In this document: positions 11,886 to 49,660 of the stretch, piece by piece | Layout: every line of letters begins with the position of its first letter | How positions within the stretch are numbered: position 1 is the stretch's first letter | Assembly (NCBI GenBank): GCA_008632985.1 | Contig: QPGO01000114.1 | Location: 124,001 to 188,000, forward strand | DNA from: Psammoneis japonica | Lineage: Eukaryota | Length of the DNA: 64,000 nt | Direction of reading: 5' to 3' | Program-made: the position numbers and the translations under genes | Notes under the pieces: model-generated | Told to the model about the DNA's origin: nothing | What the model saw: the letters and a program-made list of their open reading frames with translations, nothing else | Databases searched by the model: none

Positions 11886-11946
11886 AATGCGCGTGCACTC
11901 CACTCTCCATCGTGAGTCCATGCGTCAGCCGCTCCTCGTGGACTCA

Positions 11947-12160: not shown

Positions 12161-12170
12161 CTAAGACATT

Positions 12171-22633: not shown

Positions 22634-22809
22634 TGCAGGGCCTGCTGCAGCAACTGCTGGCTAGCTGGCTGGCAGAGTCGATCCCAAAATGAGACCCGGC
22701 ACAAATTAACTTTTTCCGCACCCACGCGGTTTCGCGCGATTGCCGCATTTAAACAAAATTTTCAGTTGTGAAGATTGCCAACACAAATGACAAAACTTTT
22801 CCACTCAAA

Positions 22810-24315: not shown

Positions 24316-27300
24316 ATGGCAAACGACGATGATCATAAAGAGGACGACGGGCCAAGCAGTGGCAGTATTTCGGCTCTAGCAAAGAGTGCTTTTGATAAAG
24401 AAGATCAAAAGATTTGGAATGTAACCGCGCCCGTGGTAATTAAAAATCTGTCTCTCCGTAAAGATACTCATTCAACGTTTGGTGGTAGCAACACCAGCGC
24501 TGACAATGCAATTCAGACTGCTCCCAATTTTGCTACTGCCATTTTAGGTCGATGGCTTGCCGATAAATTGAAGCTGAGTGAACCGGCACCCGCATACCAT
24601 GAACGTTCTGACGACGAGAACAACGACTATGTATTTGAGAATTTGAACGCACTCGTCTTGCCCGGAGAAGCCACGCTCGTGTTGGGTCCGAGTTCAAGCG
24701 GAAAGACAACTTTGTTGCAAACCATATGTGATTTGGCAACCACTAAATTACCAAAACAAAAGCGCAAGTACATCGAGGGCACGCTCTTGTTGGGAAGCAC
24801 GGATCCATATGAATCGGCCGAAAACTTGACGCGCACGGCTGCCTTTGTCGATCAAAGCGACTTGACGCTGACTCCGATTTTGACCGTCGAAGAAACGGTG
24901 CGCTTCGCCAATTCTTGTGCAGATGCAACATATGATAAGGAGGCGGTCGATGAATATTTTCGTCTCGTGGGCCTCGACCATGTCAGGTCGACTGTGGTCG
25001 GAGATGCCGACATTCGAGGTGTTAGCGGTGGACAGAAACGTCGAGTCAAGCTTTTAGAAATGGCCGTGGGAAATAAAGTACGATTGCTTGCGTTGGATGA
25101 AATCACCAATGGGTTGGATGCAGCAACGGCTTTGGAAATTTGCAAGGTGGTCCAAGTTGCGGTTGAAGTAGCGGGAGCCACCGCGTTGGTGACCCTCTTG
25201 CAACCATCTAGCGAAGTGCTAAGTACCTTTGCGCGGCTCATTTTGCTTACCCAAGATGGAAAGGTTGCCTATTCGGGTAAAACCAGCGAGGCGATTCCCC
25301 ATTTTGAGTCACTGGGGCTCGTCAAGCCAACGGAAATGAATGAAGCTGAATTTCTGCTGCGCTGTGCAACCTCGCCGACGGATTTCTGGGAGGCAGGCGA
25401 AGACATTCCTATGAATGTATCCTCTTCGGCGAAAATTGTAAAGACCTTTGAAGACTCTCAAGCTGCTCAAAGAAATTTGCAAGAGATTTCATCAGTACAA
25501 GAGGCAGAAGTACTCAAGATGAGCAGCGGTAAAGCCAAGCAGAATGAAAACATGGCTAGTTTTGCTCGACCCATTCATGAGCAAATTGCCTTGTTGTGTG
25601 GACGTGGGTATAAACTTGTGGTGCGAAACCCATCCTCAATGCAACGGGTCTTGTTCTCGATTATCTTTGGTGCCTTCATTGCGACTCTGTTTCTTAACAC
25701 GGCATCCGACGCGGCGGGTACTTCTGTTCGAGCAGGCTACGGTGAGTGTCTCAGGTTAAATACTAACGACGTTTTTCTCGCGTTGAGATTCATACTAACT
25801 ATATTTGTCGCATCCTTCCCTTCCTGGTCCACTCTCTGCCTTAGTTTTGACGTTGCTCTTCTTGGTTTTTATCAATTCTACTTCTGCCCCACTTGACGAT
25901 CTATTCAAGGATAGGCTAACCTTCTACACTCACCGAAGGGCATCGGTAAGGACTTTGACATGTACTAGCTTTCTCGTTTCAAGGCTTTCCATGCAAGTCC
26001 TCAATCTTTGCTTGAATTTTCTTTTTACAGTTCTACCGGACATGCTCATACTACATTGCTCAATCGATTTGCTCGGCAATCGTTCCGTTGCTCGAGGCTT
26101 TCTTTCTTTCAATCATTTCCTTTTATGGGGTTGGCATGAATGCAAGGGGTGGAGCAGCATTTGCTTATTTTTGGGCAATGTTCTCTCTAGTTTCGTAAGA
26201 CAGTTCAACGCTTTGTGTCAAGAGCTACAGCTTTGTCATCGTTTGTTCATCATCTCGTCTCCTCCCTTTTTGTTGTTGCTTTGGCAGACTCTGTGGCGCA
26301 TCCATTTCACGCGTCTTGTCATATGGTCTCCCTTCAACTGACATTGCACAGAGTTTGGCACCGGCGGTACTGCTCTTGTTTGTTTTGTCAGCTGGCTATT
26401 CGCCGCAGTATCAACAGCTCCCAAGCTGGTTGCAATGGCTAGCTTGGATATCGCCTTGTGCTTACACCTACGAGGGTGTCATTGTCAGTGAAGTCTGGGG
26501 ACGCAACGTTGGAGATGTCAACGGCGATGTCTGGGCGCAAGAAAATCTTGGTATTCCGCGCATCCCTTACAAGGACGCTCCATCAAGCCTCGACTCAAAT
26601 GCAAAGGTCATGCTCTTTGATGCCATGATGCTCATTGTGCTCTCTGTTGTCTTTGACGTTCTGGCCTGCTGCCTACTCCATAATAGCCAAAAGTGGTTTG
26701 GTCCGACCACAAAAAGGTTTCAAGTTGCTTCTGGTATGAGTCTGTCAGCCCCACCATGGCCAAAGTCCGACCCAAGCGGGAGCGAGACTACCAGTGTAGA
26801 GGAAGGCCAGCCATCGTCAGACGAAGATACGTCAATTCCAAAGGCTCCGGCCGTTCACCTTACCGCCAAAGACATCGTTTATGAAGTTGACATTGCGGTG
26901 GATCCAAAGGAGACGCAGCCTGACTCAGAGGCTAAACCGCAGGCTTCAGCGAGTGAGGATAGAGGCGACAAGTCGACTGGCGTGATTGACGGAGAAACGG
27001 AAAGTCTAATGTTTGAAGAGCGAAGGGACGTTCTAATTACAGCGCGGGAATATGGACAGGCCGGCAAAGGTACGGCGAAGGAGTGGGCAATCAAGAGAAG
27101 GCTTGGCGAGGACGCCTTGAATACACCAAGTTCCTCAGCTAGTTTTCGAAGGTCTTCGTCTCGTTTAGAGCTTCCACCACCAGCACCCGGTCGTCTACGC
27201 CTACTTAGTGGCGTCACTGCATCGTTTGAGCCTGGTACAATGACGGCACTCATGGGAGAAAGTGGTGCAGGTACGTTCTTCTCTAATCTGCTTGCTCTTT

Positions 27301-28965: not shown

Positions 28966-31900
28966 TCGCTCGAATGGCTGAATGAAGGAACCATATGAAC
29001 GTATGCAACAAGCCTGGTGCATGCATCTATATGGTTGGTTAAGGCCTCCGGTATGGATTGTGGTTGTGCGGATTTTGAACACCCATTCCTTCCTTCTTTA
29101 CCGTTTCTTCTCTACTCCAAATAGTAATGATTGTTGCATTCGGACGGCAGGGCCCTAGTGCTGCTTGCTTCAGCTCGTAGAACAGCACCATCTCTTGGCC
29201 AATTTTTGTTGGATTCCAGCCTGGTAGCTCCTGTAGGGTTACCCTCCAGAACATTCCTGAGCATGCATTATAATGCTTCTTTCAAAGTAACTTCTTGCAT
29301 TGTTTGCTTCGTTTTGTTTGTTTTAATGAGGGATTGATGTGCGGGCCCTTCAGACTGCAGAACTTTAGAAGGGATCATAAAATTGTCGGTGAACGTCTCG
29401 TTGAAATCAAGCAGGGATGCAAGACCACTGTGGAAGTTCTGCAAAGGGCCCTGCTCGTGAACCAACATGCCAACAAGACCCTTCCTCAGTCTGGGCATCA
29501 TCACAATGCCAGCAAAAGCCACCTGTGGAGTTGCAAGAAATGCAGGAGAGCTTGACCAACTGGATTCACAACAAAGATGGACACCTGTCCCATGACGTGA
29601 CAGTTGCCAGGCAAGACATTGCATCCCTGGGATCAAGAGCAACTTGAATGTGTGTGTCCTTGTCATTGTGATAGATCCATGTGCTTGGGTCCAGCGTCCT
29701 GTCATGACGAGAATTGCATCAACACAATCACTTGGGCACGCAAAAAAGCAGAACACCCAGAGAGTCGGCACATTGAATCGGCACAACAGAGCTGTCACAA
29801 GAGCTGCCAATCCATTGTCTTAGAGTGGGGCAAGATGGAAGACATGACCAGATGCAAAAACACTGCATTGTCTGGCCAACCAAGTCAGACTCATGGATGT
29901 TGATGAACCTGAATCACTCCAATGGTGCTCCTGCTGGGTGCTTTGCTTTTTGGAGCTTTGCTTCTCCATCATGACACATGGTGCTCTGATGCATGCTCTT
30001 TGCCAGAAGAAGAGAACTCCAGATGTTGCACTCTGGAGAACAGAAAGCATCAAAGTCACCAAGAGCAAGGGGTTGGTGTGCGCGTCAAGCCCGTGCTTTG
30101 CCACAAAAGCTGTTGGTGCAAAGAAAACTGCGTGAATGACTGGGGTGCTTTTTAATTTGTGTTGATGCCACAAAGCTTTGAACAAGGTTGATGCATTGTG
30201 CACAGATGTCATCAAATGAAGAGCAAGATGTTCCAATGCTGTGCATGGAAACCATGTGTGCACCAAGCATTGAGAATTGGGCATGATGACAGAGCATGAT
30301 TCAACCAGCCCCATTGTTTTTCTGGCAGTGGCACATCCCTGTGCATGGACAAAATTTTGAACAAGTTGAACTCAACCAAAGAATGTTGTGTTGTGTTTTG
30401 TTCTTTCCACCACCCTGTCCAAGACATGTTGACTGCCAGCCCTCATCAGATTTGCAGTCTGAGGGGTCATGCTCCTCCTTTGCCATGATGCACGGCCATC
30501 AACAAGAAGGAGTGCTGCTTGCCTGTGACACCCCAGAGGGGGCATGTGCAGGTTGTTGTGGCCCATCAGCTCTTGCAACAGCCACACTCAACATTTTTTA
30601 AAATGAGCAACACAAAAAAACTCAGAGCTTTCTGAACTTGGTGCTTTCCTGACCATGGGGCCTGTTGTTTGCTTGGTGCACCACCAGGGTTCTGGGCTTG
30701 TCTTTTTCATCAAGGTGTGTTCCCAATCTTGCCGTTTTAGTTGTTGACATCAGACACTTGTCAGCGGCAGCAATTGCAAGAAGTTTGAACTTGCATGAGA
30801 AGAAAGAAGGAGCACAACTCTGCCAATTTGTCATCATCAGAAAGGGGGCTGCTGGCACTTCTTCCAATCTTGCAGAGAGCTGCAATCTCACTAATTGCAG
30901 AGAGGGTGGTTGATGCATTGACAAGAAAAAGTGAGATGAAAACACATTGTGCAGAAGATCACAAGACAAAAAACAAGAAAAAATTCTGTGCTGGCCTCTG
31001 CCTTTTTCAATTCAAACACATCATGGATTTTTTTGATTTTGCACCAAGCACTTCTGTCCATGTGACCAGTTCCGGCAAAGATGGTGATGCCAAATGGCTG
31101 CATGTGCACCTCAAGTTGCAAAGTCATGTGTTGACAATTGCTGCTGCAAAAGGTTTTGGTGCTGGTGTTTTCAAAAAGCAACAAAGAGACATTTTGGAAA
31201 GGCAAAATAAAAAATGTGATGTGGAGCCAAACCCATGTGCTGGCATGCTTTTTTTCAAAATGTTTTGACACTTCGTGTTGTCATGAATGAAGGTGTAAAA
31301 TGACACACATTGCCATCAGACTGTGGATGGTTGCTTTTTGGGAGTTGACAAAGCCCGCCATTGCCTGTCATCTTTTCAGCTGCGGCCACTCAGTTGAGTG
31401 CATCAGGCAAGTCAGTCAAGCAGCAGATGTGAGGGCACAACGCTTTGAGCACTGCACAGTCATCTCAAAAAGCAGAGGCATTGTGTCACCAGCACATTGC
31501 CAGTGTGCCACAGTCAACCGCCTGCTGAAATCCATTGAGATGACAGCCTTCCTCCATTCTCCATTTGCACACTCAAGTTGTCACAACAGGGCAGCTCATC
31601 ATGTCATTGCCATGCTGCAGAAGCACTCCAGCTCTGGCCGGCAGAAAAATGAGCTGGGTGCATTTTCAACATCTGGAGAGTGTTCCCAGGCATGCTGGAA
31701 AGGGTGTGCTTCAAATGCAGAAGATGAGGTGCATTTGCAAGCTTGCCTGTTTTCCTGCTGAGGATCATTCGTGCACTGGCTGCTTGACAATTTTGAAACA
31801 GAGCTCACACACAGACAAAATTTGCAGTCCAAATGCCACATGCAGCCACTGACCAATTGTGCTCTTGCTCTTGCTGTCATGCTTTGCATCAGCTGTGTTG

Positions 31901-32691
31901 TGTTGCAATGATCATGACATCAATGGCTTCGAAGTGAAAATGACAGACGCAATTTGAACCCACTGACAGCCAAAATGGCTGCAGCTTTCAACAACCATGA
32001 TGGCCCAGTTTTTTCAACCTTGTGGAAAAATGAGTTGTGTGATGATGAGGGCAGCAGCATTTTGTGCAGTCTGACTTGTCAACAACAATGATGTGATGCT
32101 TGTTGCAGGCCACAGCACTGCAAAGAAGACAAAGCTGCATGGTCAGCAACAACAGCTGAGCCTTGTTTCAGAGGGCAAGCTCTTCTCCACTTCCACATGC
32201 ATTTCCTGCTCCATGCCATCAACTGATGCAATTGTTTCAGTCATTTGTGTCAGTGACATGGTGAAAAAGAGGCCAAAGTTGATGCCATTGTGTGGGCTGA
32301 ATTTCAGCATTTCTTCTTGCATCTTCTGAAGAAACTCAGGCAGTCATCAACGAATGTTTGATTTGTCAAATTGAGAGCAACTTGTGCTCATGTGTTGTGA
32401 CAAAAAATTGTTCAGGTGTTGCCAAAGAGTTGATTTTTGAATGAGAAGATTTGCTCCACATTCTTGTTGGCACATGAATGCAACAACAAATTGCATCTCA
32501 TGGCGCCATTTGGCAATCAACAACTCTTTCCACCCTCAGCTTCACACACACATGGGTGCACACACCAGACCTTTCTGCACATGCCCACAGCAATGCATGT
32601 GAAAATCATTGTGTTTCATCCTTTCAAAACTGTGCCAAAAGCTTGGACCATGTGTCACATGCAAAAAGGGGCATTTTTTGCGCATGTGCAT

Positions 32692-33085
32692 GATGTGTCC
32701 CAGGCACAGGTGGGAATCGTCCGTGTGACATTTGGCCCACAGAATTCTGCATGTGAGGAGCTCCACAGCAAAATCACCAGGCAATGAACATGTCATTGAT
32801 TGCCAACAGAAAAAGAGGCAATTTTGCAGATGCAGCACAAACTCATCCATGATTGAAGCACATCATTTCTCACTTGGCTGGGTGCATTCTTCAGGGATTG
32901 AAGAGCACACCTGGCCCCACAAATCTGTCAAATAAAAAGTCTGGGGTTTCATAAAACAGCAAGTCTGGGGCAACTCTGTGGGAGAGCACATGCAGAAATG
33001 TGTGCGCAAAACATGTGATGGATGACAAAAAATGACCATGTCACATGTCAGTGCTGTGAGCTCCCACCTGGGGCTGGAACGAGCC
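32692..33085. mobile_element. MITE copy 3, older, same subfamily as 36662-37061 and inverted relative to it
   Basis: Degenerate TIRs gatgtgtcccaggcacaggtggga / tcccacctggggctggaacgagcc and the shared subterminal gtgacatttggcccacagaattctgc. Confidence 0.8.
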
Positions 33086-34517
33086 ACACACCCAAGTGTC
33101 TCAAACGAGTCTTTGGGGCAGCAAACAAGAAGCCTGAGAGCACAAGGCTTTTGCAGAATGAGAAGAGGGCGCCAGAAATGTGACAAGATTTGCAGGTGAA
33201 AAAGGATTGTCTTTTGTCCAATGATGACACCAGCTTTCATTCATCAGCAGTGATGTGGCCTGCATGATGAGGGCCATGTCAATCGGCAGCAGAGTGGTGG
33301 CAGCAAGTGCCATCATCTCATGCTTGATGTGCATGAGGTCAATCAATTGACAGCTCATGCAAAGAAGTGTTTTGGAACATTGATGGGGTGAGAGGCAGCT
33401 TTTGTGGGACAGACAGACAGTGTTGCAGTGAAAGATGTGCCAACAACTGCTGCGCGTGCTGCTGCTGCGGCGCTTTTGGGCTTGCAACTCAGGTTGTTGA
33501 GCAGGCTTTGTGCCCACCTTTTAGCTTCTGCACCTGGCTGATGCAGCAATTGTGGCCAACATCAATGGGAGTGTGTTTGTGGGCTGTGAAGCCAGCTTGG
33601 GTTGGCGAGACTGAATGTGTGCTGGCTGGCAAGCCGCAAAGCGTTCTTGTCTGCAGGCTGTTTTTAATTTTAGATGGTGAAGGGTTGGGAGCAGTGTTGG
33701 GGAATGAAGCCACCACATTTGCACCGGCAAGGCAGTTGGCAGCTCTGGGGTGGCCAAAAGAAATGCACAAAATCACCAAGCTTAAAGAGCACCAAAGAGA
33801 GAGGGCAGGTCACACTGCTGGCCTGTTCCAGCTCCAGGTGCTCCACTTTTCATCACGCTAGATTTTCTGTGCAGTTTTCAGTGCCAGACATTTTTGTCTC
33901 CACCTGGCAGAGCTTGCACTTTTTGGCTTCATGCAAACATTGATTGTTTTGATGACATGACACATTTGTGACATTGATGATCATGTGCAACAACTGAGGT
34001 GCACAATGCGTCACAGGAAGAATCGTGTCAGTTGGCATTTAAAATTTCTGGTGATGCACAGAACAACACTGACTTCTACGAACACGTGCCGTCCACCCAG
34101 GCCAGCGAACACACACCAGTCACAACGCAGCACACCGCTGTCACCACTCCACAACCCCCTCTTCACCCTTGCGGTTGTTTGCAACCATCTGTTCCTTTCA
34201 TTTCAAAGTCACATCGTTGTTGTCGCAATGCGATTGCGGCTCTAAAGAGTTGCTGTCATTGCAGAGAACACCATCTCTTCGCATTCTCTTGTTTCGAATT
34301 CGGCAAGTTGCTTCATCGTGTTTTTTTTTACGCGTCACCGTGTGCGTGTGTTTTTCTGGTTGTTTCTCACGTCTTGTTTTATGGTTGTTTTGCACCAGGG
34401 CCATCGGAATTTCCACAAAACTGAAGCATTCGCCCAGTCGTTCTCCGAGTGACATTTTGCACTGGAGCCAACTTGTCTTGGTTTGTTTTCACTGTGACGC
34501 TCACTGTTTGTGCTCTC

Positions 34518-34757
34518 CAGCATCTGGAGCTGCCTTGGAGGCTGCCTCTGTTCATCCGTGTCACTTTCGCGGCAACTGACGTTGGCCCCCTCTCTGGAGT
34601 GCATTTGTCGCACAAGCGGGAGCGCAGCTTGCTGTTTGACACTTTTCAGCATCTGGAACTGCCTTAGAGGCTGCCTCTGTTCATCCGTGTCACTTTTGCG
34701 GCAACTGACGTTGGCCCCCTCTCTGGAGTGCATTTGTCATGCAAACAGGAGTGCAGG
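34518..34757 (+). repeat. Tandem repeat with 129-bp period in the left arm of the transposon
   Basis: cagcatctgg...ctctctggagtgcatttgtc at 34518 and 34647. Confidence 0.9.
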
Positions 34758-37700
34758 GGCAGTGCATTTGCCATGGACACATTGGCCAAAGCAGCCTCCC
34801 AGCAGCGTCCCATTGGCGGCAGTTCCCCTCAAGCAAACGACAACTCTTCCAGCACGTTGAAGGTTTCCATTTGCGTCCAGCGTTGCATCGAGGCACTCAC
34901 GGAACATTGCCCACTGCAGGGTGAAGCCAAAACTTGGCACACTGTGCCTCTCCAAGAGGCAGTCAATCCCCTTGAGTGCCCTCAAGGTCTTGCAGATTTG
35001 AGCATCTTGACCACAGAAGATTGTGCGTCAAAGAAGATGAGCCCTCTCTTTCATGTTCTTCATCACAAGAATGGTTTGGATGGGTTCAACAGTGCCAAAA
35101 CACAGAACATGTTCCGCGACACTGTTGTCGATTGGTTTTGTGAAAAATTCAACTCCGAGAATCGACCGCAACTGAACCAGCGCATCAAGGACAAGAGCCA
35201 GCACCTCTTGATGTTGGTTGTGGTGCCATCAGGAATGTTGATGAGGGACGCCGTGAAGGACAAGCAAAATGTTGCCACTGTTTTGATGTGCCGTGTCAAG
35301 ACAAACATTGGCCTGCTTGTTGATTGCATCTGTGTGACAGAGTCTGAGGTTGTGGAGGTTGGGACGGGCAATGAGAGTGAAAAGATCATGCTGTCGAGTC
35401 AAGGTGCATGTCCTTTTTTGATTGGACTTGCCCAAGCCATTTGCCATGGTGTTGTCAAGAAGATGGATGCATGTCTTCATTGTCAGAAGACATTGAAGTC
35501 TTGTCACATGGGAGTGATGGGTTTTGAGGACATCGCGGACACCATGAGTGATCGTTCTGACCTGGCGGATGTCCACAAGCACTGGGACTGGGATCATCTC
35601 ATGGAGAATGATCAAGGCAACACTGTTGCCCTGTGTGCAAAGGAGAGGATTGCTCCAATGAGCTCTGCAATTGTTTTGGCATTGCCTCATTCCAGCGCTG
35701 AGCATCAGAATGTCGCAACAGATGTCCGCAACAATGAAGACTGTTGGGACGAACCGCTTGTTGAAGGAGGATGCATCGCTGATCACCGACTCCACTTGGC
35801 ATCTTTGGTCAACATTCAAAAACTAGAAATGCACGATGATGAAAAGTCGACATTAGATTTAAAAGCGCATGCGTGGCTGCCGTTTGGCAACGTCGTGTTT
35901 CAAAGTTGGTGGGGAATTGAGTCTCCAACGGGGAAGAAGAACAATTTTGAAATGTTGGCTTTGAAGGGGTTGCATGTCAAGTTCTGCTGTGAAACAAAAT
36001 GTCCCATTCTATCTGCCAAACAGCATTGGGGTTCAATCTGCAACTGTCGCTCTGTTGCAAACGAAGTCGCTCAGAGGAAGCAGGTGGATGAAAAGCAACG
36101 TCGAAAACCACGCATCAGCTGCAAGAAGTTGAAGAAGACCATTGTGGATCACAGCAACGATTGTGTTTTTCATGTCAAGCATTGCAAAAGGGAAGAGCTT
36201 GAACAGTCGGATGATGACATGAAGGAAGATCCCTGCACTCCCGAGCTTCCCACCAACGTACAATGCAAAGTGCTCACAAGTTGCGTGAATGGCTGCAGGA
36301 GGATTTTCTCATTTGGGCCATGCGACCCCAATGACAGACTGCCATCCAAGGCCTTGTTTGACATCTTTGCAGGTTGGTGGCACAACCATGTGTTGCGGAT
36401 GACCTCTGATGGTGAGTGCAGAGGCACCACTTGTCCGCCGGACCAGCGGTGCAAGCCTTTCAAGCCGCGACAATGCTCCCAGTCAGTGGAGGCCGTCACC
36501 GAAGACAAACACATCTTTGAAGTTCACTTCCCCGCCGGACCAAGCAGGAAGGACCATTGCAAAGAGCCGCTCAATCACCTTGCTGATTGGTGCAAGGCAG
36601 CTCCTGGACTTGCATGGTGTGAGTTTTGCAGAAGGATTCGTTGCCATCATCACTTGCATCAGACGCGCTCCAGCTCTAGGTGGGACCTCGCACGCACTGC
36701 TGGACTGTGACACAATTATTTTTTGTCATCCGTCGTATGTTTTGCATGCACATTTCTACGTGTTCCATTGTAAAAAATTGTTCCACACTGCCTCTTTTGC
36801 GAAGCCAAAGGCTTTCTGTTTTCTGCATTTGTGACAACAAAAATGCGCTGGGTGTGTTCTTTAATGTCTAAAGAACATGCCCGGGCAAACCACAAATGAC
36901 GCACTTCAAATTTGGAGGAGGAGATACGTTCATAAAATTGCCTCTATTTCTGTCAGCGATCATTCATATTTTCATTGCTTGACAATTTTGCTACGGAGCT
37001 CGCACGTAGAATTCTGCGCGCCCAATGTCACAAAAAGTCCCACCTGGGATTGGAACCCGTCATCACGCCAGTGCCTGTCATGCAAGGTTGAAGGAAGAGC
37101 TGGAGGAGGAGGAAAAAGAAGAGGGGAAGGAGGGCACTCAAGAGACGGATGACCTGCAAAAGGCCGAGGCTGGCACTGCCAGGTTGCAACTGCAAGACAA
37201 AAACCAGGAGGAGGAAGATGGGGCCATGGATCAATCGTCTGAGGAAGAGGAGGAAGATTGCGGTGTGCGAGACGGAAAAATCCAGGAGGAGCAAGATCCA
37301 GAGGAAACTGAGGACGAGGAGGAAGATGAAGACAAGGAAGAAGTTTCTGAAGCCAAGGCTGCAGAAGAGAAGAGGGAGAAAGCCAAGGCTGCAAAAGAGA
37401 AGAGGGAGAAAGCAAAGGCTGCAGAAGAGAAGCGGGAGAGGGCGGGGGATGCTTTTTGCAGACGTGACAGGCAGCTCATGAAAGACACAACTGGTGTGCA
37501 AAAGGATGAGGATCTCATTGGCCTTCGCAGCTCTGTCCCGAAACCAAGGCCAAAAGGAGCCACTTCATGGCATCGGTTGACCAAAGAGCAGCGACACCAA
37601 CAAGAAAGGGATTGACTCGAGCATGAGTGCGAAGACGCTCAAGTGATGTTGCAGGTTAAAAAATTCATTTGGATTGATCCAAGTGCATGGAACAGCAGGC

Positions 37701-38770
37701 GCCAGCATCCTGGAGATTCCGAAGGAGCTGTTCCTCACTTGTTTGGTTGCTTTGAAGGGAAAAACAAGGGCGTCATTTTGTGGGAACCATGGTTTGATGT
37801 GCGACACAATGAAATGAACGGCCACCCCATGAACACGTGTGCGGCCCTCATCTCACGCACCAAACACAAACCAAACATTCCCCAGCAACTCAATCGAAAA
37901 TGCAGGGACGAAATTAAGAACAAGGTGGAATCGATTTGCAACCCACCACAGATTGCCAAACTGAAGAGATTGGCTGAAGCGGAGATTCAAAAACTTCCAC
38001 CTGTTGGTCGGGGAGCTGATTTCATTGGCTGCAGCTCAGAGGGGAACCGTCCCATGTGTGCAACCCTGGATTGGGCTGAGTGCAATTTCAAGTTTCGGTT
38101 TCCAGATGTGTGGAAAGATTTGAAACAGTTGAAGCCATCGGATGGTCATTGCTCCTTGCCGGAAGGAAATGTGTTGATGCCATCGAACAGAAACTTGCCG
38201 ACGAGCGGTCCACCTGTGAAATTCCTGCAAGGACAAAATGACACTTGCGTTTTTTCCTCCCTGGCCAGTGTTCTTGATTGTGTTGGCAATGTGGAAATGA
38301 GAGACTGCATTGCTTCTCACATTCAAACATCCACCAACTGTGCTGACACCAACAACAAGTGCATGTTGTTTGCAAAGAACATGTTGAACGGTCGTTTGAA
38401 GGGAAAATTCCCGCCCACAAACTCAAACATGAAGTTTTGCGGCAGTGTGGATCGATCGATTTCCCTGGCAGCAGGTGATGAATTTGATGTGACAACCTGC
38501 AATTGTGACTTCACAACTTTGTGCCGTCTTTTGAACAACCACTGCATTGCCTTGCACCATGGATGGATCTTTGATTCCAACCACCCTTTTGCATTGCCAG
38601 CAAACGACACCAAGTGCTTGAATTGGTGTCTTGGGAACAAGGAACATGAGGTGAAATGTGTGGCAAAAAAGCGTCTGCAACAAGTGTTCATGGTGCACCA
38701 GTTCGAACTTCCCAGGGCGGCGCAGCAGCAGCTGTGTGCAAAAAGGAAAGCTTTTGTGTTGGATGGTTAA
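34728..38770 (+). pseudogene. Transposon cargo ORF (about 1200 aa reconstructed): possible GNAT-like region, acidic linker, papain-like peptidase domain
   Basis: Removing the MITE and one TSD joins HHHLH to HASACHARLKEE in frame; one in-frame TGA at 37613-37615; C-terminal Q-x4-T-C-VFSSLAS ... H-CIALHHGWIF-D-SN. Confidence 0.7.
36662..37061. mobile_element. 400-bp MITE copy 4, TSD ATCA, retains many TpA
   Basis: gacgcgctccagctctaggtggga ... tcccacctgggattggaacccgtc with ATCA on both sides. Confidence 0.95.
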
Positions 38771-38828
38771 TCCAGCTGCACAATTTAAAATGACAATCAC
38801 AGTGTTTGTTCATTTTCCCATTTGCACT

Positions 38829-41800
38829 TCATTTGTCCGACTCATCACCGTCACTGCCCCCTGCCACGCTCTCATCATCCTCCACAGTGCGTTCCATGCC
38901 GTCATTCTCTCCCTCACACTCACCAGCTTTGATGTTTTGTTCCTCCACCTCGTCCAAACAGTCCTCAAAATGGTCCATTGCCTCCCGCTGTCGGGCGGCA
39001 TCCAGAATTCCTTCATGCTCGTCATCGCTCAAATGACGTGGATGAAGAAGTGAAGCCTCATTCCTGTTGCATGTGCTTGGCAGTTCCCGATTGGCCGATG
39101 GTTCATCAAGCTCAATGTTGGCAATTGCAGCTTGCTTCAGCAACACTCTTGTCTTGCATTCCTCAGCATCACCGGGAGTGTGCCATCCTCTGGCCCGTGG
39201 AACAGGGTCAAGATGCATTCCCTTGCAAACCCATTCACCGGCCTTGACAGTTGTGGGTGGGTCAAACTTTTCCCACACCTCATCCTCCTGTGCTTTGTGG
39301 GGGAGTTCATCCCATTGCAGCAGACAAAAGCCCTCCTCAGATTCACAAGACAATGTGGCATGGCTGTTTAGAACAATTTCCTTGGCCATTTCCTCAGTCA
39401 GGAAGTCCAACACAGATTTGTGAACCAACTGCACCTCGTCAGCATCACTCTTGTCTGTTTGGATCACCTGACACACTTGCCAATCATTCAGTCCCTCAAA
39501 GACAGGCCACAATTTGCAAGCTCGGTTGCCACCTGCATGTCGTGGCTGCTCTGTTGGCTCGACATTTTCAACCCAAGGGCGTTTGAGCTGATCCAGGCAG
39601 GCTTCACAAGCACAAGGAATTCTTCGCATGGCAACCCAACCAGTGGGGAAAAGAGGTTCAAATCGGAAATGGCACAAGGCTCCAATGCCACAATGGCATG
39701 TGCACACTTGCACCAATCCAATCAACTTGACTTCAATTAAAGAGCCAATGACTTCATCAGCTTCTTGCAGACAATGCACCCTTTGCACTGACTTTTGAAG
39801 GGATTCCCTCTTGGCATGTTTTCTGTCACCAGCTGCGCCCAAAGCATTCTTTTCCTTTGTGACTGTTTTGCAACATTCCTTGGCATGACTGTGTGCAGCT
39901 GCAACACACTTGTCATCCATGACCAAAGCTTCAGGTCTAATTTTTCCATCCTTGTCATTGACTCCTGCGACAATTGTGGACTGCATTTCTCGATGCACGA
40001 GTGATTTGATGCAGGCTCCAATGCCATCAACCTCTCCTTTGCCATGTCCAGGTGCTCCAATGGCACGGTCAAACACAATGTTGCATTTGTGCGCAAATGC
40101 AGACAACAAGCACAGTGCCAAAGCACATCGGCACTGTTTGGCACAACCATCAGTGTGATCCCAAATCACAAGCCACGCCTTGCACAGGTTGCGGTTTTTT
40201 AACCAGATGACAAACTTTTCCAAGTGAGTGTGGGTGGTGGTGGGATCTTGCTTGGAAGAGTCAGAGAGACGCGCATGATGTGTTTTCTCAAGCACATTGT
40301 CAACCATTGCATTGCAAACTCTTCCTTCAATTGACAATGTTCGGTTGTTGCCACAATGGTCACCCTGAACTTGCTTGTTGAACTTTGCCTTCTGATGCTC
40401 GGAGAAGTCATGAGACGTGAACAGGCTGTTGGGCATTGACTCAAATGCTTTGCGACGCATTTCCATGCAATGATTTTTCCCAAGAATGACCACATGGGGA
40501 AGGTGGCAGCGCAGCTTCTCTAAACTTGGAATGCAGTGCTCTTTTACAAAGACACCGACTGGTTTGCGGAACCTTGTCAACAAGGTCCTTCATTTCACCT
40601 TTGCATCCTTGTTCCCATCTGGATCTGCCTCACAAACAGGACATGCTTCCATGTGCACACCATGCTTGGAACAACTTTTTACAGTCAAGTGACGTTGAAA
40701 CAAAACTTGGGGTGCACCAGGACTTTCATTCTGCTCCAACAACGGAGTTGGACAGGATGGGCAATGCTCACATTCACCCAAAACGCATTTCCAATGAGGA
40801 TGATCCTGACCATTGACGCTGCCCCAAATGATGGTTGCAACTGCATCTCGGGCTTTAGGATGAAGGTGATGGCCGTTGGGGCCAAACGCCTCATCTTGAC
40901 AGACACACATTGTTTCCTCCAATTTGCCAAGGGCACTGTCACAGTTCTCCGAGTTCTCAGGATCCTCACTTGCAAGCTTCAACCGACTTTGCTCCACCTC
41001 CATCTCTTTCAAAAGCTTCCTTCGAAACGTGTTCAATGCATCTTGCAGAAAATTGGCGTTGGTGCAATCGCTGCATTGACACATGCTGCGTTGACTTGCG
41101 CTCATTTTTCGACACTGCTTGGGAATCAAAAACCAAAACATCGTGTGGCTGATGAGGGTCTTGCCATTGGCATCACGTGCATGTTTGAATCCACCAACAG
41201 AAACAGGCTTCAACATGTTGTTGTGAAGCTCACGCATGGACACATTGCGCAACCATTTGTTCACTCGTTTCTTGTTTCCATCTTCATCTTCAATGAGAGT
41301 CATGTCTCGTGTGTTGGGAGACTGCACTGTGTTGGGATGATTTGACAACCAGTGCACAAATGCCTTGCGGATCTCAGGGGAAACTTTGTGAGGACGCCGA
41401 CGGGGTTGCACAGAAGACCACATGACATCGTGAGTGTTTGAAATCAAGGCCTCTCTGATTTCCTTCCCCTTCTTCATTTGGCGATGAACAGTGCTTCGAT
41501 TCAGGCCAAGTGCCTTGGCATGGTCATGGGAAGACAACATTTTCTCATCAGCAGATTTTTCTGGTGAACCGGAGATTCCAGTTGCCAGAGCATGGACAAA
41601 TGATTTTTTGTTGTCAGCGAGGTGTTGACCATTGCTGGTGTCGTTGGCACGTGCCCACATTTTGCCCAGCTGCTGGGTGATTTGCAAGGCCGCAGAATTT
41701 GTGCTTGGCAACGTCAAATTGCAAGCCTGAACAAATGGGGACAACTCGGGAAAATGCAAAGTGTGCACAAAGGCACAGATTTGTTGTTCTTGAGTGGCGG

Positions 41801-42360
41801 CGCAAGACAGCACTTCTTCTCTTGCTTTGACCGCTGCACGACAAAGTGCCTGTTGGGGATCTTTGTGAGTTGCTTTAAATGCATGAGGATTGAAAGTGGG
41901 GCAACCTTTGGAGGTGGCAAGGTTGACATCAGCTCGGTTGGCTGAAGCGACAGAGGGAGCAAGGGCGGCATTGTCAGAGGTGAGGTTGGAGGGAACGGCG
42001 GCAGCTCCTGCAGCGTGCATTTGGGAGGGGCCTGGTGGTCTTGGCAAGGACAACCCTGGACAATGAGTGGGGTGCTCTGTGGAGGTGTTCAGGTTGAAAG
42101 CAGCCAGGTTGGTGGGAGCAACGGAGGGAGTGACGGCGGCAATGTCAGCGTTGGGGTTGGAGGGAGTGGAGGCCACTCCTGCAGCGTGCATTTGGGAGTG
42201 GCTTGGCGGTCTTGGCAAGGACGACCCTGGACAATGAGCGAGGTGTTCTGTGCAGGGGTTCGGGTTGAAAGCAGCCTGGTTGGCGGGAGAAACGGAGGAA
42301 GTGACAGAGACAGCAGAGTTTGGGTTGTTCGGGTTGGAGGGAGTGGCTGCAGCTCCTTCA
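38829..42360 (-). pseudogene. Transposase (over 1100 aa) with one in-frame TGA at 40590-40592 and 171-bp repeats in its N-terminal part
   Basis: HDFSE, WDHTDGCAKQCRC (DGCxxQYR) and GAPGHGKGEVDGIG motifs plus Cys-rich segments; the 542-aa and 584-aa ORFs are in the same frame. Confidence 0.8.
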
Positions 42361-43764
42361 ACTCAGCCTCAGCAACGACATGGTCGGAGACCGTGTCGTG
42401 TTTTTCAAGTTCGCGAGGCTTTTGTTTTTGCTGTTGCCAGTCCCTGACTTGTGTCAACGGCCAACTCCATTTTGCTTCTTCCTCTTGTTGCCCATGATGC
42501 ACTGGAAATTTGATTAAAAGTGTGCATCAAGAGGGCTGCTGGTGGATGAGACGGGCGGCAAGTCGAGAGGACACATTTTTTTGGCGCGCTCAATCACATT
42601 GGCTGTTCTGTGTCTGCATGAATGAGGCATGTTCGGACGTCAGTTGAGTTGAAGAAGACCAAACACACGAGCTCCGAAAAATGAAAAAGTGAACAATCAC
42701 CAGCATTTTTCACGTGGAATGGGGCACCAGCCAAAAATCACATTTGGCACAAACAAGTCCTTCATTTTTGATCATTTCGAAAATCGAAAGGTGAGTGTGC
42801 ACCCGAAAACACATGTAAAGTGCACACTCACCCTTCAATTTGGCAAAAAACGGATTTTGAAAAAGTTAATTGCGCCAAACCTAAAAATGGGCTGATGGTG
42901 GGAATCGAACCCACTCGGAGCACCTGGAGCTGGAACAGGCCTGCTCTGACGAGCACCATGTCGAAAGGACTTGCTGGTGATCATCTGGTCTGCAACTTGT
43001 GGAAAGGGATGACACAATCATGTGAAGCAGAAAGTGAACACATTGCAACAAGCATTTCAAGCGCCGCACATTCCTTGACGGAACGGGGATGCATTCCGTG
43101 CGCGAAGTGGCTGCTCTAGAGCTGCCAAGTACGAAGTGGTAGCAGCACTGTAGTTACTTGTGGGATACAGATGAAGCGTCATTTTTCGATTTGTCCAATG
43201 ACAAGCATTAAAATATCATCATTGGTTTATTATTCTATTTAATTTTTGCAGCGGCAATGACTTGTGGGATTTTGTTTGTTAAATCAAAGGTCATTCCAGC
43301 GCTGAATATGATATTATTTGTGTCTGAATACATCTATTGTAGGGCATAAACAATTAGAAGGGCTTATCTTCCTCACGTTTTGATCAGCGATTTGATGACC
43401 AAAATGCAGTCGAAACACTAGCCCCATGCTGTTGAGTGTCTTTGTGAGCACCACGGCAATGTCCACAAGAGTGCCTGTTGACCAACACTCTTTCAACAGG
43501 TTTGAGCAAGCACACGTTGTTTGATGAGTTCCGTCCTGTTCTAGTGAGGAACACAGAGCAATCGCCACGAAAGCTATACCTGTCGGAAGCTCTGTCGGCT
43601 TCGTCTTGGAGCTTCAAACTGTTCACAGCCTCCGGTAAGAGTGAATTAACCTGTTTTCTTCTATGTACGCTTTTCATGATGAGGACTTGGGCTGTATTGC
43701 TTGTTCAATTTGCTTCTTTGACGTATCTAACAAACTATTGTTGCCTCGATCGCGTTGCAGAATA

Positions 43765-44899: not shown

Positions 44900-47800
44900 T
44901 CGAGACTTGTCCGCCCCACTGCGAGTTGTCAACACTGGCCAAACAATCAATTTCACCCGTCCCCTGCGAATTTCTCTAATTCTTAGAAATTGGGCGCTCA
45001 CAATCAGAGATTTTCTAATCCACACCACAAAATTAAAATGACAACCCCCCTTCTTCCCCCCTGGGAAAATGTCTCCGGAGTTCAGAGAGGTTGGAGTGGC
45101 CGCTGCTTTGCTCTTGCAGTCAGAGGGGCTGGCCCAGCGCTCTGCAAAGTTGGCTGTGTTTCCTCCTGAGAAATGTTTTTTTCTCATTGACAGAGCTTCA
45201 AAAACAAGAAGCTGTGCGCTGGAATTTTTTTGCGTGTGTGCAAGTTCCCTGCGCTGCGCTGCACTTGGCCCACATCTTCGACAACTGTGGCTGCTGCAGG
45301 CTGCCCTGGTGGGCTGCTCAGTTGCTTTTCTCATTTGAGCGCCATTTCCAGGGAGTGCACAATCTGAGCAAGATTGTCTGGTGCTGTCACCCACATGACA
45401 CACACTGTTGATCTCATCTTTTGCTGCTGGTGCCAGTGTGCTGGCGTGTGATGTGTGGCCCAGCTGCTCCGCGCCACGTGTTTGGGCTGTTGGAAATGGC
45501 ACAGAGAGGCACGTGAGAATTTGTTGTGCAAAATTGCTCTGCAAAAAGAAGAGCAAGCTTCTTCTCAGGGGCTTCACTCTCCTCTTTTTCCATTGCTTGT
45601 GTTTGCCCAGTTTTCTCAAAGAGGTGGGTGCCGTGATTTTTTGCTTTTCAAAATCCAGAATCTTTCTGCTCCACACACAGCAAACACACTGCTGGGCTTC
45701 ACAAAAGGTGTGGTCATCCCCATGTCAGCTCACACACCAGCCTGTGTCACCATGCACCAAACCTGCAGGGCAGGTGGGCAGGCATTCAGAGTTTGTGGTC
45801 GATCGAAGAATGAGCTGATGCGGCGGATCGAGCCATTGACAGATTGTTGGCAACGTTTTTGGTGTTCATGTGTCATGTCACCCCCACTCCAGTTGATGTC
45901 CAGCCCACATTGTTTCCCCTCTTGGCGCACTCCTGTGCTTCATGTTCTTGGCCTTTTTTGCAAGCTTCTCATCCTTCTTGACAGCACCATGCTCACACAC
46001 GCAACTCATCTTCTTGGAGTTTTTTGCATCATGCTTGAGGAGTTGCTGGCCTGGCTTGAATGTGCACAGCCTGATGTCATTGACTTTGAACACCATGGCT
46101 TGTTTGCCCATCTTTTTGTCTGGCAGACAGAGCTCATTCACTGCTCTGTTGTTGTGCATGATGCAGCACTTGCCCTTCCAGGCTGCAGTCTCTCACAAGG
46201 CTCTTCTTGAGGCCCTTGCAAAAATGGTCATCACTGTTCTCTGCAAACAGGCATGCAGCCCATGTCTCAAATGCAGTGTCCTTTGGTGTGGTTTGCTCCA
46301 CTGGGAAAATGCAGTGCTTGTGTGCCTTGGTGTTCTTGATGGGTCCATCCAGCATCTTGACACCAAGACCATTGCTTGCAGCATCTTGTTGATTCTTAAA
46401 TCTTGATGGGCAGCCCTTCAGCAACTTGTCCTCTTGTTGTTTCACTTCCCAAGCATGTGCTTCAGGGATTTGGCAAGTGTGTGGAATGGACATGGACCTC
46501 TCATGGAGTCAAGCTCAGTGACTGGATCAGCTTCAACAGTTTGATTGGTTGATCAGGTCATCTCTGATGTTGTCACAACTGGGGTTGGTGAGCACTCTCT
46601 GACTCATCAGTGTGGGATTGCTGCGCAAGTGCAGTGGCCTTGTTCTCCTCAAGCAAATTTCATTTTCTCATCACAGTCATGTGATTTGACAACCTTGCAC
46701 TCCTCATGCTTGCAGCTGCTTCTCTTCTTGTTGCAACTTCTGGGAAAATTTCTCCTGACAACCACAATTGTTTGGGGCTGACCCTGGGGCCACAACTGTT
46801 GTTGGTGCCCCCAATGCAAAAGGTTCCCTCGCTGGAGAAATCCTTGGTGCAGGCCATGTCTTCCAGAGACCTTGTCAGATGTGTGCAACCTGATCATGCT
46901 CTTTCTGTGTGTGGGTGATGATCTTCTTCTTGATGTCCTTGCATGCTCCTGTTCATCAATGATGGGTGAAACTTCCACTCTGGCCCAAAGTTCCTCTTTG
47001 GGTTGGTCTTCTTGCCCTTGTCACAGGAATGCTTGTGGCCTCTGCCACCCCTGCCTGGGTCATGTCCTTGGCCTTCAGAGTGCTCACATTCTGCCTCCTC
47101 CCCTGCCACTCATGATGCAGGCTTCCTGCATTGGAAATTTTGCATGGAGGTTGCGGCAGCACTGCATGCACCAAATGCAGTGCTTGCAACTCTTTGGAAA
47201 AGTGAGTGTTGAGTCAACAAGTCAATGTTGTCAAAAGGGAATCCTCTGGGGTTTCCTGTGCCACTTGTTGCACTTGCCCTGGTTGCCATGGCAACTGTGG
47301 TTTGCCTGGAAGTCTCCAACAAACTTTGGCCTTGCAATGTGACAGGTGCCTGCTGACATCACAGTGTGGCTTGTGTGGGCCAGATGGCTCACACTCCAAA
47401 GAGTGAGATCAAAAGAAGAGTGCAGGTTGGCAAGATTGGTGACAAGCACACATTCATTTGTTGGTGCTGCCGAACCCACCACAAGGCACGATTGCCTTCA
47501 ATCTGACCATGCAGCTTTCCAATGATCATGATTTCTGCCCTTGCTTCAACCTTCACACAGCATGTGGGCCGGGATCTTTGCATGGTGAGTTGGCTTTGCA
47601 TGAGGCAGTTTGTGGCATGACTGTTTGGTCAGTCAGCAAGTTCTTTTTGGACAATGATGACAAAGAGCATGTCTGCAAATGGGGCGAGTGTGGCTGCCAT
47701 CCAATCCACACAGCTTTTTTTGCTTTGCGTGGTGGAGCCCACTGCTGCCAGAGCAAAGCTTGTGAGATTTGTTGTCAAACAGAGCTGATGCTTCTTGCAT

Positions 47801-49660
47801 TGATGCCAACAACAGCGCTCCTTTTTGTTGGGCTTTGCAGGGCTGGTGGTGGCAAAGATGGGGTGCATGTGCTTTCAATGAAGAACTGCCCTCTTGGCAT
47901 GCTCTCCATTGGCAAAAACCTTGTTGTTGCACTGAGTCATTTAGGCATGTGTTGCATCTCTCAAAGGGGTTGTGCAATGCCAAGGTGGTGGCAGCAATGA
48001 GAATGTTAGAGGGCACTTGCTTTTTGTGCTTGTCTGGTGACTTTGAAGCCGTCAAGAAGAGGAAAAGAAAGACAAAGTGCACAGCACAAGCTTGTCAGGT
48101 TTCAGGGCTAAAAGAAGACATTTTGTGCTGCTGTTTCTTTCTTCCAATGAAGTTGAAGCTGTGTGTCAACCACAAATGTCATTTTTTGTGTGTGTTGTTG
48201 CAGCATGTCTGAGAGTGAGTTGCTTCATTCCTCACCAGGTGGCGCTCAAGCCGATCCCCTCATCATGGCGTGGCGGAAGAGAAGACTGCCCCCCCCTCCC
48301 CCACCCACCCTGCCCTGTGCATGTGACAGGCAACAAAAAGCAGATGTGTTTCAGTTGTGTCGTTGTGGAAATCATGAGCTAGTTTAGATGCAGAGAAATG
48401 GGATCGTGCGCTCACACTTTTGCCTTCTTTTTGAAGCAAAGGTTTCCAGAACAAGCAAGGATGATGTGCCTCTTCATGTGGCCACATGCGCTGGCGGCAA
48501 GGGCATCATGGCAGCTGCCATCTTGTTGAAAAATGGTGCTCACTCTGTGGCACTCAACAAGCAGCTCAGATGGCCCCTGGATGTTGCAGCCAACAAATTC
48601 TCTGAAGAGTTGAAAGTGGGCTTGTCTCCAAGTGGTTTGAGCTGTGACCTGAAATTGACTCGCTGGATGTTGCAACCTGTGGATTTTCTGAACAGTTGAA
48701 AGTGAGTTGTCTCCAAGTGGCTCCAGTGGTGACCTGAAAGAAGATTAAAAAAATGCAAACAAAAAAAGCAGCAGATGGCCAAAATTGAGGAAACCTGCAA
48801 CACACTCACACCAGCTGTCAGGTCTCCTCAGACTCTCTCACAAAAGCTCGGACACTCATGCTTCACCATCCGGAGTGTCTGGAGCCTGCAAACACTCTGA
48901 AGTCTGAACATTTTTGGCAAGCTCCTGATTGCATCAAGTCCATCATGAGCCTCTGGATCATTGTGGCAGCAGTGGCATTCTTGGCAGCAATGCACTTTCA
49001 AGAGTTTGGAGGATGCTCTGGATCTTGGTGGCGGCAACAATCAACATGCAGCATCGTTGCTTCTTGCTGTGCTTGAAGGATGCCTGGATTTTAGAAGCTG
49101 CAGCATTCTTGGCACTTGGCAACAAAGTTTTGAAACACCCTCTGCCTGGATTGTTGTTGCAGCAGCAGTCATGTTCTTGGCAAAAGCGTGCTTGACCAAG
49201 CTTCGAAAAGCATGCTTGGTCATCTTGATGGCACTGATCTTTTTGTGCACCACATTGAAGGCTGGAGGAATGGAGTGGACATGCCACAGCACTGACTCCA
49301 TTGACAAGTTGGGAATCTCCATGATGTTCACACGGACATTGTGGGTTACATTCACTCTGCAGCTTGTGCTGACAAAGCCTTTGGATCCATGTTGGCTGAG
49401 TTTGCGTGGGAAAACAAGGTGGCCATTTCAACCCTAATTCCCAAATTGTTGGATTTTCTCAGTCACTTTGTCAAGTCATCAACATGTGTTGCTTTACTCT
49501 GCACAACAACACAATGGAAATGGGAATCTTCCTTGCCTCAGCAGAGGGCAAGACAGTGCTTGTTCTCAATGTGTGCTTGCCAATTGCCCCCCAATTTGCT
49601 GTTGGATGTGGTGCAGAACACTTTTTATGAGCGTTGAAGTGGCGGAGGGGGGCACACACC
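44900..49660. other. TpA- and CpG-depleted domain 3 of heavily decayed sequence
   Basis: Very TG/CA-rich; faint remnants resembling copia gag (~46180-46265), an ankyrin repeat (~48440-48600) and IQ-like motifs (~48950-49170). Confidence 0.85.

Follow-up and report, generated by a model that had tools for sequence, protein, structure and literature searches.

Boundaries, copies and gene content of the element

The window analysed here is a stretch of 64,000 nucleotides from the Psammoneis japonica assembly GCA_008632985.1 (contig QPGO01000114.1, positions 124,001 to 188,000 of the forward strand). The segment between positions 33820 and 42941 of this window is very probably one complete but no longer active member of a multi-copy family of Sola2-type cut-and-paste DNA transposons, resident in a eukaryotic (protist-like) genome. 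The element is bounded by perfect 25-bp terminal inverted repeats (TIRs) of sequence GGCCTGTTCCAGCTCCAGGTGCTCC and flanked on both sides by the tetranucleotide TGCT, the target-site duplication (TSD). With up to three mismatches allowed, GGCCTGTTCCAGCTCCAGGTGCTCC has only two matches in the window, at the two ends of the element, and two matches were obtained in none of 100 shuffles. Inside lie a transposase gene on the minus strand and, convergent to it, a companion gene of about 1,233 codons that is split by a 400-bp miniature inverted-repeat transposable element (MITE). The features of the locus are as follows.

33816..33819, no strand: left copy of the TSD, TGCT
33820..33844, plus strand: left TIR, 25 bp; its core, TCCAGCTCCAGGTG, is common to the MITEs of the window and to the metagenomic relatives L004 and L011
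34504..34756, plus strand: left subterminal tandem duplication, its two units of about 125 bp being 89-90% alike; overlaps the start of the companion frame
34668..36661, plus strand: 5' part of the companion gene; first ATG at 34773, no TGA in 666 codons, no detectable homologue
36662..37061, plus strand: MITE copy A, 400 bp, nested in the companion gene; TIR type GACGCGCTCCAGCTCTAGGTGGGAC, ATCA at 36658-61 and 37062-65
37066..38770, plus strand: 3' part of the companion gene; acidic low-complexity linker, in-frame TGA at 37613-37615, TAA stop at 38768-38770
38195..38767, plus strand: predicted papain-like cysteine peptidase domain; Q-x5-C (QGQNDTC, 38228-38248), SLASVL, HCIALHH..WIFDSN (38540-38581)
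38829..42362, minus strand: transposase gene of about 1,176 codons, interrupted by a single in-frame TGA (40590-40592)
39465..40562, minus strand: predicted catalytic core of RNase H fold; HDFSEH (40412-40395), DHTDGC..KQCRC (40160-40125), HGKGEVDG (40046-40023), RRIPCAC (39626-39606)
42917..42941, minus strand: right TIR, 25 bp
42942..42945, no strand: right copy of the TSD, TGCT

The TIR core pattern TCCAGSWCYRGGTG has eight matches in the window against 0.23 expected. The large element accounts for two of these, one at each end, and MITE copies account for the other six. There are four such copies, each of about 390-400 bp and with a TIR resembling that of the large element. Besides copy A, these are:

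About 32690-33085: MITE copy B, with no 4-bp TSD
10315-10704: MITE copy C, with TSD CTGC
21523-21912: MITE copy D, with TSD GGCA

Thus, perfect 4-bp duplications (TGCT, ATCA, CTGC and GGCA) flank four of the five window elements that have the TIR core, copy B being the only one to show none.

Sequencing depth, unitigs and differences between copies were drawn from the contigs of one DNA sequencing study, which match 0.40 of the words of the stretch; no RNA sequencing run containing the stretch was listed. Summed k-mer depth, which is not a copy number, was about 1,600-3,200 over the element as compared with 60-120 in the flanks, reached about 8,400 in the bin at the right end and was highest, in the region covered, over MITE copy A (about 24,000-26,000, again summed depth and not copies). 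Single-copy unitigs stop at 33848 and restart at 42919. Since the change in depth and the unitig breaks fall at the TIRs, the borders of the repeat are those of the TIR ends. One record joins position 33877 to position 42752 and represents a short internal-deletion derivative. The differences among the copies are mostly transitions (933 places, versus 309 transversions). These results agree with the first-pass annotation, made from the sequence of the window, which had described a complete two-gene DNA transposon with perfect 25-bp TIRs and a TGCT duplication and had made it a test whether the TIR/TSD pair delimits other copies: the TIRs are unique in the window, the borders are supported by the unitig breaks, and four of the five elements with the TIR core have perfect 4-bp TSDs. 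The copy itself is dead, having suffered one in-frame TGA in each gene, the insertion of the MITE in the companion gene and the loss of nearly all its TpA dinucleotides.

The transposase and its relatives

Apart from its single TGA, the minus-strand transposase frame (42362..38832) is open. Its N-terminal 220 codons are of low complexity and include a 171-bp tandem repeat (41895-42236). The core keeps the candidate acidic residues, and its conserved tyrosine positions are occupied by cysteine or histidine. A search for homologues with a 956-residue read-through of the gene, the TGA being read as tryptophan, yielded 1,548 relatives at E<=1e-3, of which 99 reached E<=1e-30. The best of them measure 1,130-1,185 amino acids, are 34-36% identical to the query and are collinear with it over residues 4-942; the best single relative has 1,185 amino acids and 34% identity. 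The relatives stem from contigs of about 4-7 kb in ENA, JGI and Logan, with no informative name among them. Among viral contigs (IMG/VR), 47 matched the search pattern and none proved to be a relative.

Profile searches did not identify the protein. None of 57 relatives matched a Pfam transposase family (in one set 10 of 10 had no match; in the other, 44 of 47 had none and 3 of 47 had unrelated domains only), the five window open reading frames (ORFs) gave only helix-turn-helix matches below threshold, and a PDB sequence search with the C-terminal half of the transposase returned no match. Structure comparison was more informative. For the core of L001, an intact relative, AlphaFold2 gave a model, built from a 45-sequence alignment, with a predicted local distance difference test score (pLDDT) of 85.8 and the order beta-beta-beta-alpha-beta-alpha-beta-alpha. 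Its top matches by VIA were retroviral integrase cores (Z 9.2, root-mean-square deviation [rmsd] 3.5, 149 residues aligned) and Mos1 (Z 8.7, 172 aligned), with further matches to Metnase, IstA, TnsB, Sleeping Beauty, Hermes, Tn5 and the P element; Foldseek matches (integrases, PIWI, Hermes, IstA) agreed in kind. As modelled, the transposase core is a DDE/D domain of the RNase H type. Of the two kinds of search that had been proposed for the transposase, that with hidden Markov models (HMMs) gave no transposase family, and that with structures led to integrase cores and Mos1.

Sola2 is a superfamily of eukaryotic DNA transposons reportedly described by Bao et al. in 2009. We know of no solved structure and no tested element for it, and it is, to our knowledge, among the least studied of the cut-and-paste superfamilies. 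The blocks of the published Sola2 transposase alignment are DFAENY, QDEIQSxHW, SDGCxxQYKN and SHGKxxCDGxGG (Bao & Jurka 2013, PMC3627910, supplement file 2). When the two alignments were compared by eye, the alignment of the present family showed RDYAERL, EIQSxHFG, TDGCAKQYRC and PGHGKxxVDG in the same order. The two sets can be summarised as collinear D[FY][AS]E, E[IV]QSxH[WF], [ST]DGCxxQY[KR] and HGKxxxDG motifs within a large transposase, and CxC and CxxC motifs lie upstream of the blocks in both. The Sola2-type resemblance noted in the first-pass annotation is present in the published alignment, and it is accompanied by a predicted RNase H-fold DDE/D core, Cys/His motifs upstream of that core, short TIRs and a 4-bp TSD. 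By TSD length, motif blocks and modelled fold, the element fits Sola2.

An alternative assignment, which we consider unlikely, is that the element represents a distinct, undescribed DDE/D superfamily whose motifs are shared with Sola2 by convergence or by very ancient descent. At about 1,150 amino acids its transposase is longer than the 888-residue Sola2 proteins of PMC3627910; it has extra conserved cysteine motifs such as RRIPCACxxC; and the transposase has no Pfam match, DUF7869 (see below) included, in the window protein or in the 57 relatives. This alternative would leave aside the four collinear blocks matching the published Sola2 alignment, the unusual DGCxxQY(K/R) and HGKxxxDG motifs among them, as well as the 4-bp TSDs of four elements out of five and the RNase H fold predicted for the core. 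As to Pfam, PMC5751038 states that it contains no Sola2 model.

Placed within Sola2, the element has some features of its own. A chimeric Sola2 with two genes is already known, namely the Sola2-Fanzor of dictyostelids (PMC3627910), which the present element resembles in its two-gene organisation. It differs from it in that the second gene encodes a protein with a predicted papain-like peptidase domain, not Fanzor/TnpB: no match to the OrfB/TnpB (Fanzor) Pfam families was found in the window ORFs or in the intact companion relatives of L015, L025 and L018. Also, the TSDs are not AT-rich (TGCT, ATCA, CTGC, GGCA), unlike the AWWT of dictyostelid Sola2. Finally, in contrast to reference Sola2 elements, this lineage is known only from the window and from marine metagenome and metatranscriptome contigs. 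It is a large lineage, with its 1,548 relatives, and has no Pfam model. Together with the element, they delineate a large branch, from marine protists, in which the TIR is conserved, and some intact members (e.g. L004, L011 and L015) are available for testing.

Among 77 related metagenome loci examined, the TIR core pattern was present in three. Perfect inverted pairs surround single-gene elements of 3.9 kb in L004 (25-bp TIR, GACGTGTTCCAGCTCTAGGTGAGAC) and 4.4 kb in L011 (24-bp TIR); these have about 32-34% protein identity and near-identical TIRs. Identical transposase cores were seen in three AT-rich metagenome contigs (L033, L036 and L037). In L033, 34-nt inverted repeats that are 94% alike (87-120 and 11923-11956) delimit about 11.8 kb of DNA that is dense in internal palindromic repeats; this locus may represent an element of far greater size with a related transposase. 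Another relative, P0043 (1,359 amino acids), has an N-terminal PHD finger (residues 142-189, E 3.5e-7); this suggests that some members of the family are directed to their targets by chromatin.

The companion gene

Deletion of the MITE together with one copy of ATCA joins 34668-36661 to 37066-38770 in frame. The first-pass annotation had proposed that both genes can be rebuilt by removing one MITE, reverting one TGA in each (37613-37615 and 40590-40592) and restoring TpA. Because TA is nearly absent from the element, TAA and TAG cannot occur in it, and long open frames alone are no evidence of coding; as many as 39 frames of at least 100 amino acids overlap the region. One could hence imagine that the plus-strand gene is an artefact of the lost TAA and TAG codons, TGA being the only stop able to survive, and that the element really has a single gene, as do its relatives L004 and L011. 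The lack of any homologue for the first 660 codons would agree with this view. However, the plus-strand companion frames contain no TGA in 666 and 385 codons as compared with 16-32 in the other plus frames, from which we conclude that they are real former coding frames. Furthermore, relatives of the 3' third occupy the same convergent position at six loci, with conserved catalytic motifs, and the peptidase fold of this third is predicted with confidence. We therefore judge an artefact to be highly improbable and, for the 3' part, refuted.

The six loci were found among the 77 by tblastn. With the 3' part of the window companion as the query, matches were obtained in L018 (E 9e-15), L015 (4e-14), L025 (7e-9) and L013 (5e-5), all of them directly behind the transposase and on the strand opposite to it; L049 and L014 were added when the intact companion ORFs served as queries. 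The companion is convergent behind the transposase in L015, L018 and L025 and is partial, at contig ends, in L013, L014 and L049. Its ORF extends for at least 950 amino acids in L015 and at least 846 in L025, being open at the contig end in both. A homologue search with residues 520-950 of the L015 companion gave one match, P0160. In a tree of 26 transposase cores, L013, L025, L014 and L018 formed one clade with 100/100 support. With the window outside this clade, the companion gene occurs in at least two transposase branches.

Across five to seven sequences, the C-terminal part of the companion conserves the motifs Q-x5-C...SLASA and HC..V..W.FDSN. A model of the L018 companion (424 amino acids) had a mean pLDDT of 64, rising to about 80 in residues 260-424. 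All 50 VIA matches listed for this domain were papain-fold peptidases, headed by a C39 double-glycine peptidase (Z 9.5, rmsd 3.3, 127 aligned) and including staphopains, ComA, AvrPphB and deubiquitinases of the Josephin and UfSP types. The top Foldseek rows were a Josephin-like clippase (E 5.8e-4), PCAT1 and staphopain, and an Atlas search with the companion 3' ORF gave weak leads (0.83), clusters of IpaJ and of C39 peptidases among them. The predicted oxyanion glutamine, nucleophilic cysteine and histidine of papain-like (clan CA) enzymes occupy the conserved positions. No match to the peptidase Pfam families C39, C48 or OTU was found at E<=1 in the window ORFs or in the intact relatives L015, L025 and L018. 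For the first 680 amino acids of the companion there was no Pfam match either, and none of 7,018 candidates in the homologue search was related to it; a by-eye likeness to an acetyltransferase pattern (RGxG...YxxxGF) in this part found no support.

Judging from motifs and models, we regard the second gene as a conserved companion with a predicted papain-like cysteine peptidase at its C-terminal end. The first-pass annotation had called it a convergent cargo ORF of about 1200 amino acids. That it is a real gene holds true, given the absence of TGA and the related loci; that it is an incidental passenger does not, given its conservation and its peptidase domain. Given that the two genes occur together in at least two branches of the family, the companion is most likely an accessory factor of transposition. 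Possible roles of its peptidase are protein processing or the removal of a ubiquitin-like modifier.

Cysteine peptidases accompany other cut-and-paste elements: KI-MULE carries ULP1, for example. OTU and C48/ULP1 are listed as accessory domains of DNA transposons in PMC5751038. The present element is like these in having a cysteine peptidase beside the transposase and differs from them in two respects, as its best structural matches are C39, staphopain and Josephin-like proteins, with no Pfam C48 or OTU match, and as the peptidase stands at the end of a separate protein of about 1,200 amino acids. The literature searches on Sola2, which did not extend to Repbase, brought up no account of such an element carrying a peptidase gene. 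The element and its relatives define a recurrent peptidase companion gene.

A number of observations weigh against the reading of the segment as a two-gene transposon of the Sola2 type. The Sola2 link is drawn from motif blocks, fold and TSD length. By language-model features, the nearest named cluster is Pfam DUF7869 (PF25273; score 0.93). In the single-gene relatives, the tetranucleotides on the two sides do not match (TTGT at 196-199 and ATCA at 4090-4093 in L004; TGGC at 4786-4789 and CCGA at 9173-9176 in L011), a discrepancy that chimeric short-read assembly could explain. At the two CA-versus-TG sites among the individual variant places viewed (the best 40 of 1,265), all other contigs, five and six in number, had TG. 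Such sharing at both sites implies that part of the family may have been copied after mutation. As for the companion, its N-terminal portion of about 660 codons has no homologue, the related loci included, and hhalign gave the 5' part a probability of 16.6% over 112 columns when compared with the relatives. At least 1 kb is available behind the transposase in 15 of the 77 loci, and the companion is present in just three of the 15. It is certainly missing from L004 and L011, where the right TIR directly follows the transposase. Lastly, the window core falls elsewhere in the tree than the clade of companion-bearing loci, on a branch (length 2.18) too long to be placed.

Membership in DUF7869 was dropped on the basis of hmmscan results: the window protein gave no match to this family at E<=1 or E<=10, nor did any of the 57 relatives at E<=0.01. 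A literature search on DUF7869 found nothing.

If the element worked as its parts suggest, the transposase of about 1,150 amino acids, with an N-terminal DNA-binding region, cysteine-rich motifs and an RNase H-fold DDE/D core, would bind the TIRs of about 25 bp (consensus G-R-C-N-Y-G-Y-TCCAGC-W-C-Y-AGGTG), excise the element and reinsert it with a 4-bp staggered cut, giving rise to the 4-bp duplication. MITEs and deletion derivatives with the same ends would be mobilised in trans. The protein of about 1,200 amino acids made from the convergent gene, ending in the putative papain-like cysteine peptidase, would assist transposition in some way.

Loss of TpA from the element and from other mobile DNA

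The element has an observed-to-expected ratio (o/e) of 0.052 for TA, 1.55 for TG and 1.68 for CA; in host-like DNA, TA stands at 0.646. In its five stop-to-stop ORFs there is no tyrosine codon, as had been noted previously, the number of codons being 2,441 by our count and not about 2350. TA depletion extends to about half of the window and affects the blocks 9660-23700, 29400-43117, 45034-49092, 54262-55201 and 60006-64000, which have TA o/e of 0.02-0.1 and TG and CA o/e of 1.5-2.0 and alternate sharply with host-like blocks where TA is about 0.65. Every block resembling transposable elements (TEs) is depleted (the Sola2-type element, Copia and most copies of the MITE); none of the recognisable host genes is. 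The blocks of normal TA content include an ABCG transporter, an amino-acid transporter, a SAD/SRA protein, a 2OG oxygenase, an F-box protein and a hydrolase. MITE copy A, with 13 TA (o/e 0.44), is fairly TA-rich although it lies inside the saturated element.

Three comparisons indicate that the loss was mutational and followed insertion. First, we considered the 18 alignment columns in which at least five of nine relatives have tyrosine. The window protein has cysteine in nine of them, histidine in six, phenylalanine in two, leucine in one and tyrosine in none; in control columns, conserved tryptophan was kept in 7 of 8, cysteine in 18 of 20 and histidine in 12 of 16. Second, the TA sites of MITE copy A are TG or CA in copies B, C and D. 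Third, a comparison of copies C and D over 389 bases gave 30 differences, of which 20 lie in ten TG/CA swaps, seven at CpG and three are other transitions, with no transversion; such a swap is what one TA leaves behind when it is resolved differently in the two copies. Thus, the loss of tyrosine and TpA is the outcome of a post-insertional host hypermutation and not a property of the element.

We attach very little probability to the opposite view, that the TA-free composition is native to the element and reflects its donor or a selection against TA. The other contigs do share one state at the two sites displayed (see above), as such an origin would have it. It leaves unaccounted for, however, the replacement of tyrosine by cysteine or histidine at 15 of 18 positions where tryptophan and cysteine are kept, the same loss in unrelated TE classes (Copia reverse transcriptase, MITEs) and not in host genes, and the ten TG/CA swaps between two MITE copies when a TA-rich copy of the same MITE exists. 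In addition, de novo mutation of TpA to TpG or CpA has been measured in Bigelowiella natans, according to a preprint (bioRxiv 10.64898/2026.01.13.699255). A native composition is therefore largely refuted.

The TA sites that survive give an indication of sequence preference. There are 120 of them in 33.1 kb of depleted DNA, and 64% (77/120) are in the context YTAR, as compared with 20% (227/1,157) in host DNA. Relative to the host, survival is 0.03-0.05 for TAY (TAC and TAT), 0.12 for TAG and 0.27 for TAA, a gradation from which it follows that the targeted A prefers a 3' pyrimidine (5'-TAY-3'). The CpG content of the depleted blocks varies, its o/e being 0.15-0.24 in blocks 29400-33819, 45034-49092 and 54262-55201 and 0.73-0.86 in blocks 9660-23700 and 60006-64000, with the Sola2-type copy (0.52) in between. 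This pattern fits a second, slower decay of CpG to TpG/CpA acting on the same elements, which would be usable as a relative clock.

Repeat-induced point mutation (RIP) of fungi converts C to T at CpA and so makes TpA. The process seen here is like fungal RIP in its outcome, with dense transitions that are confined to mobile or repeated DNA and kill every copy, neighbouring genes being spared, and unlike it in its chemistry, which is the opposite: here TpA is destroyed (A to G). RIP itself was ruled out, as TpA is depleted about 12-fold instead of being enriched. A closer parallel is the process of B. natans, in which TpA is likewise lost and TpG and CpA gained by A-to-G or T-to-C changes. In the preprint (bioRxiv 10.64898/2026.01.13.699255), 230 of 231 mutations in two integrated viral regions were A to G or T to C, all at TpA; clusters depleted in TpA and enriched in CpA and TpG, with a surplus of TE-type Pfam domains, were described; and an ADAT2-like deaminase was proposed, without proof. 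The present case differs from what is reported there in its near saturation (TA o/e 0.02-0.1) and in affecting all TE blocks, as opposed to viral inserts. Also, the preference TAY > TAG > TAA and the CpG depletion of some blocks have no counterpart in the main text of the preprint. This kind of hypermutation is already on record in a 2026 preprint; what the present case adds is its saturation on transposons and the preference for TAY. Dependence on repeats is doubtful, since a high-copy MITE within the saturated element is only mildly affected and since the main target in the preprint is single-copy.

The most likely course of events is that, after insertion, the host marked the DNA of the element and edited A at TpA, leaving TpG or CpA. 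The conversion removed about 95% of TpA, every tyrosine codon and nearly all TAA and TAG codons, with the slower CpG-to-TpG/CpA decay, one TGA per gene and the MITE insertion adding further damage. We propose two linked readings, to be taken jointly and as a tentative suggestion. In the first, a widespread and as yet unnamed branch of Sola2 in marine protists would have the companion as a second component in its own right, needed either for transposition or for evading host silencing, e.g. as a deubiquitinase-like enzyme; this would amount to a new two-protein transposition system. In the second, the window would record a genome-wide, saturating, TAY-preferring adenine-editing defence that kills mobile elements of every class, from the DNA transposon and the LTR retrotransposon to most MITE copies, leaks about 170 bp into the flanks and far outpaces the decay of CpG. 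Functionally, this would be a counterpart of RIP whose chemistry is the reverse, and it may operate in another organism than the sole species reported so far.

Because it is full-length and has many relatives, the element provides a calibrated record of the conversion of TpA to TpG/CpA, with saturation on transposons plainly visible, and the TAY preference constrains the candidate enzyme. There is also a practical trap: the loss of TAA and TAG leaves very long open frames in dead DNA.

Some further features of the window were recorded. Immediately outside the right TIR, the 172 bp from 42946 to 43117 contain no TA (about eight would be expected at host density), have a CpG o/e of 0.81 and are single-copy by k-mer; they represent either a leak of the TpA process past the border or the remnant of another element. 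A Copia-type reverse transcriptase frame of 1,085 amino acids (60742-63999, minus strand; RVT_2, E 2e-22) runs off the end of the window; its TA o/e is 0.10 and it is not depleted in CpG. SAD/SRA is a type of methyl-cytosine reader. A host-like ORF with this domain (51603-52565, minus strand; E 2e-17) lies adjacent to one for a 2OG-Fe(II) oxygenase (52847-53518, minus strand; E 6e-7, just below the Pfam cutoff), and the pair may be relevant to DNA modification in the host. The idea of a dinoflagellate genome with 5-hydroxymethyluracil was dropped, as the spliced-leader relic had no match in the window at up to two mismatches. The first TA-depleted block holds an inverted duplication (10316-11931 versus 21523-23741) whose arms, about 10.8-11.9 kb apart and 87-92% alike, include MITE copies C and D and differ mostly by TG/CA swaps and CpG changes. 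Finally, host-like DNA of normal TA content holds a direct repeat (1-777 and 4288-5064, 4.3 kb apart) whose two units of about 780 bp share 98% identity.

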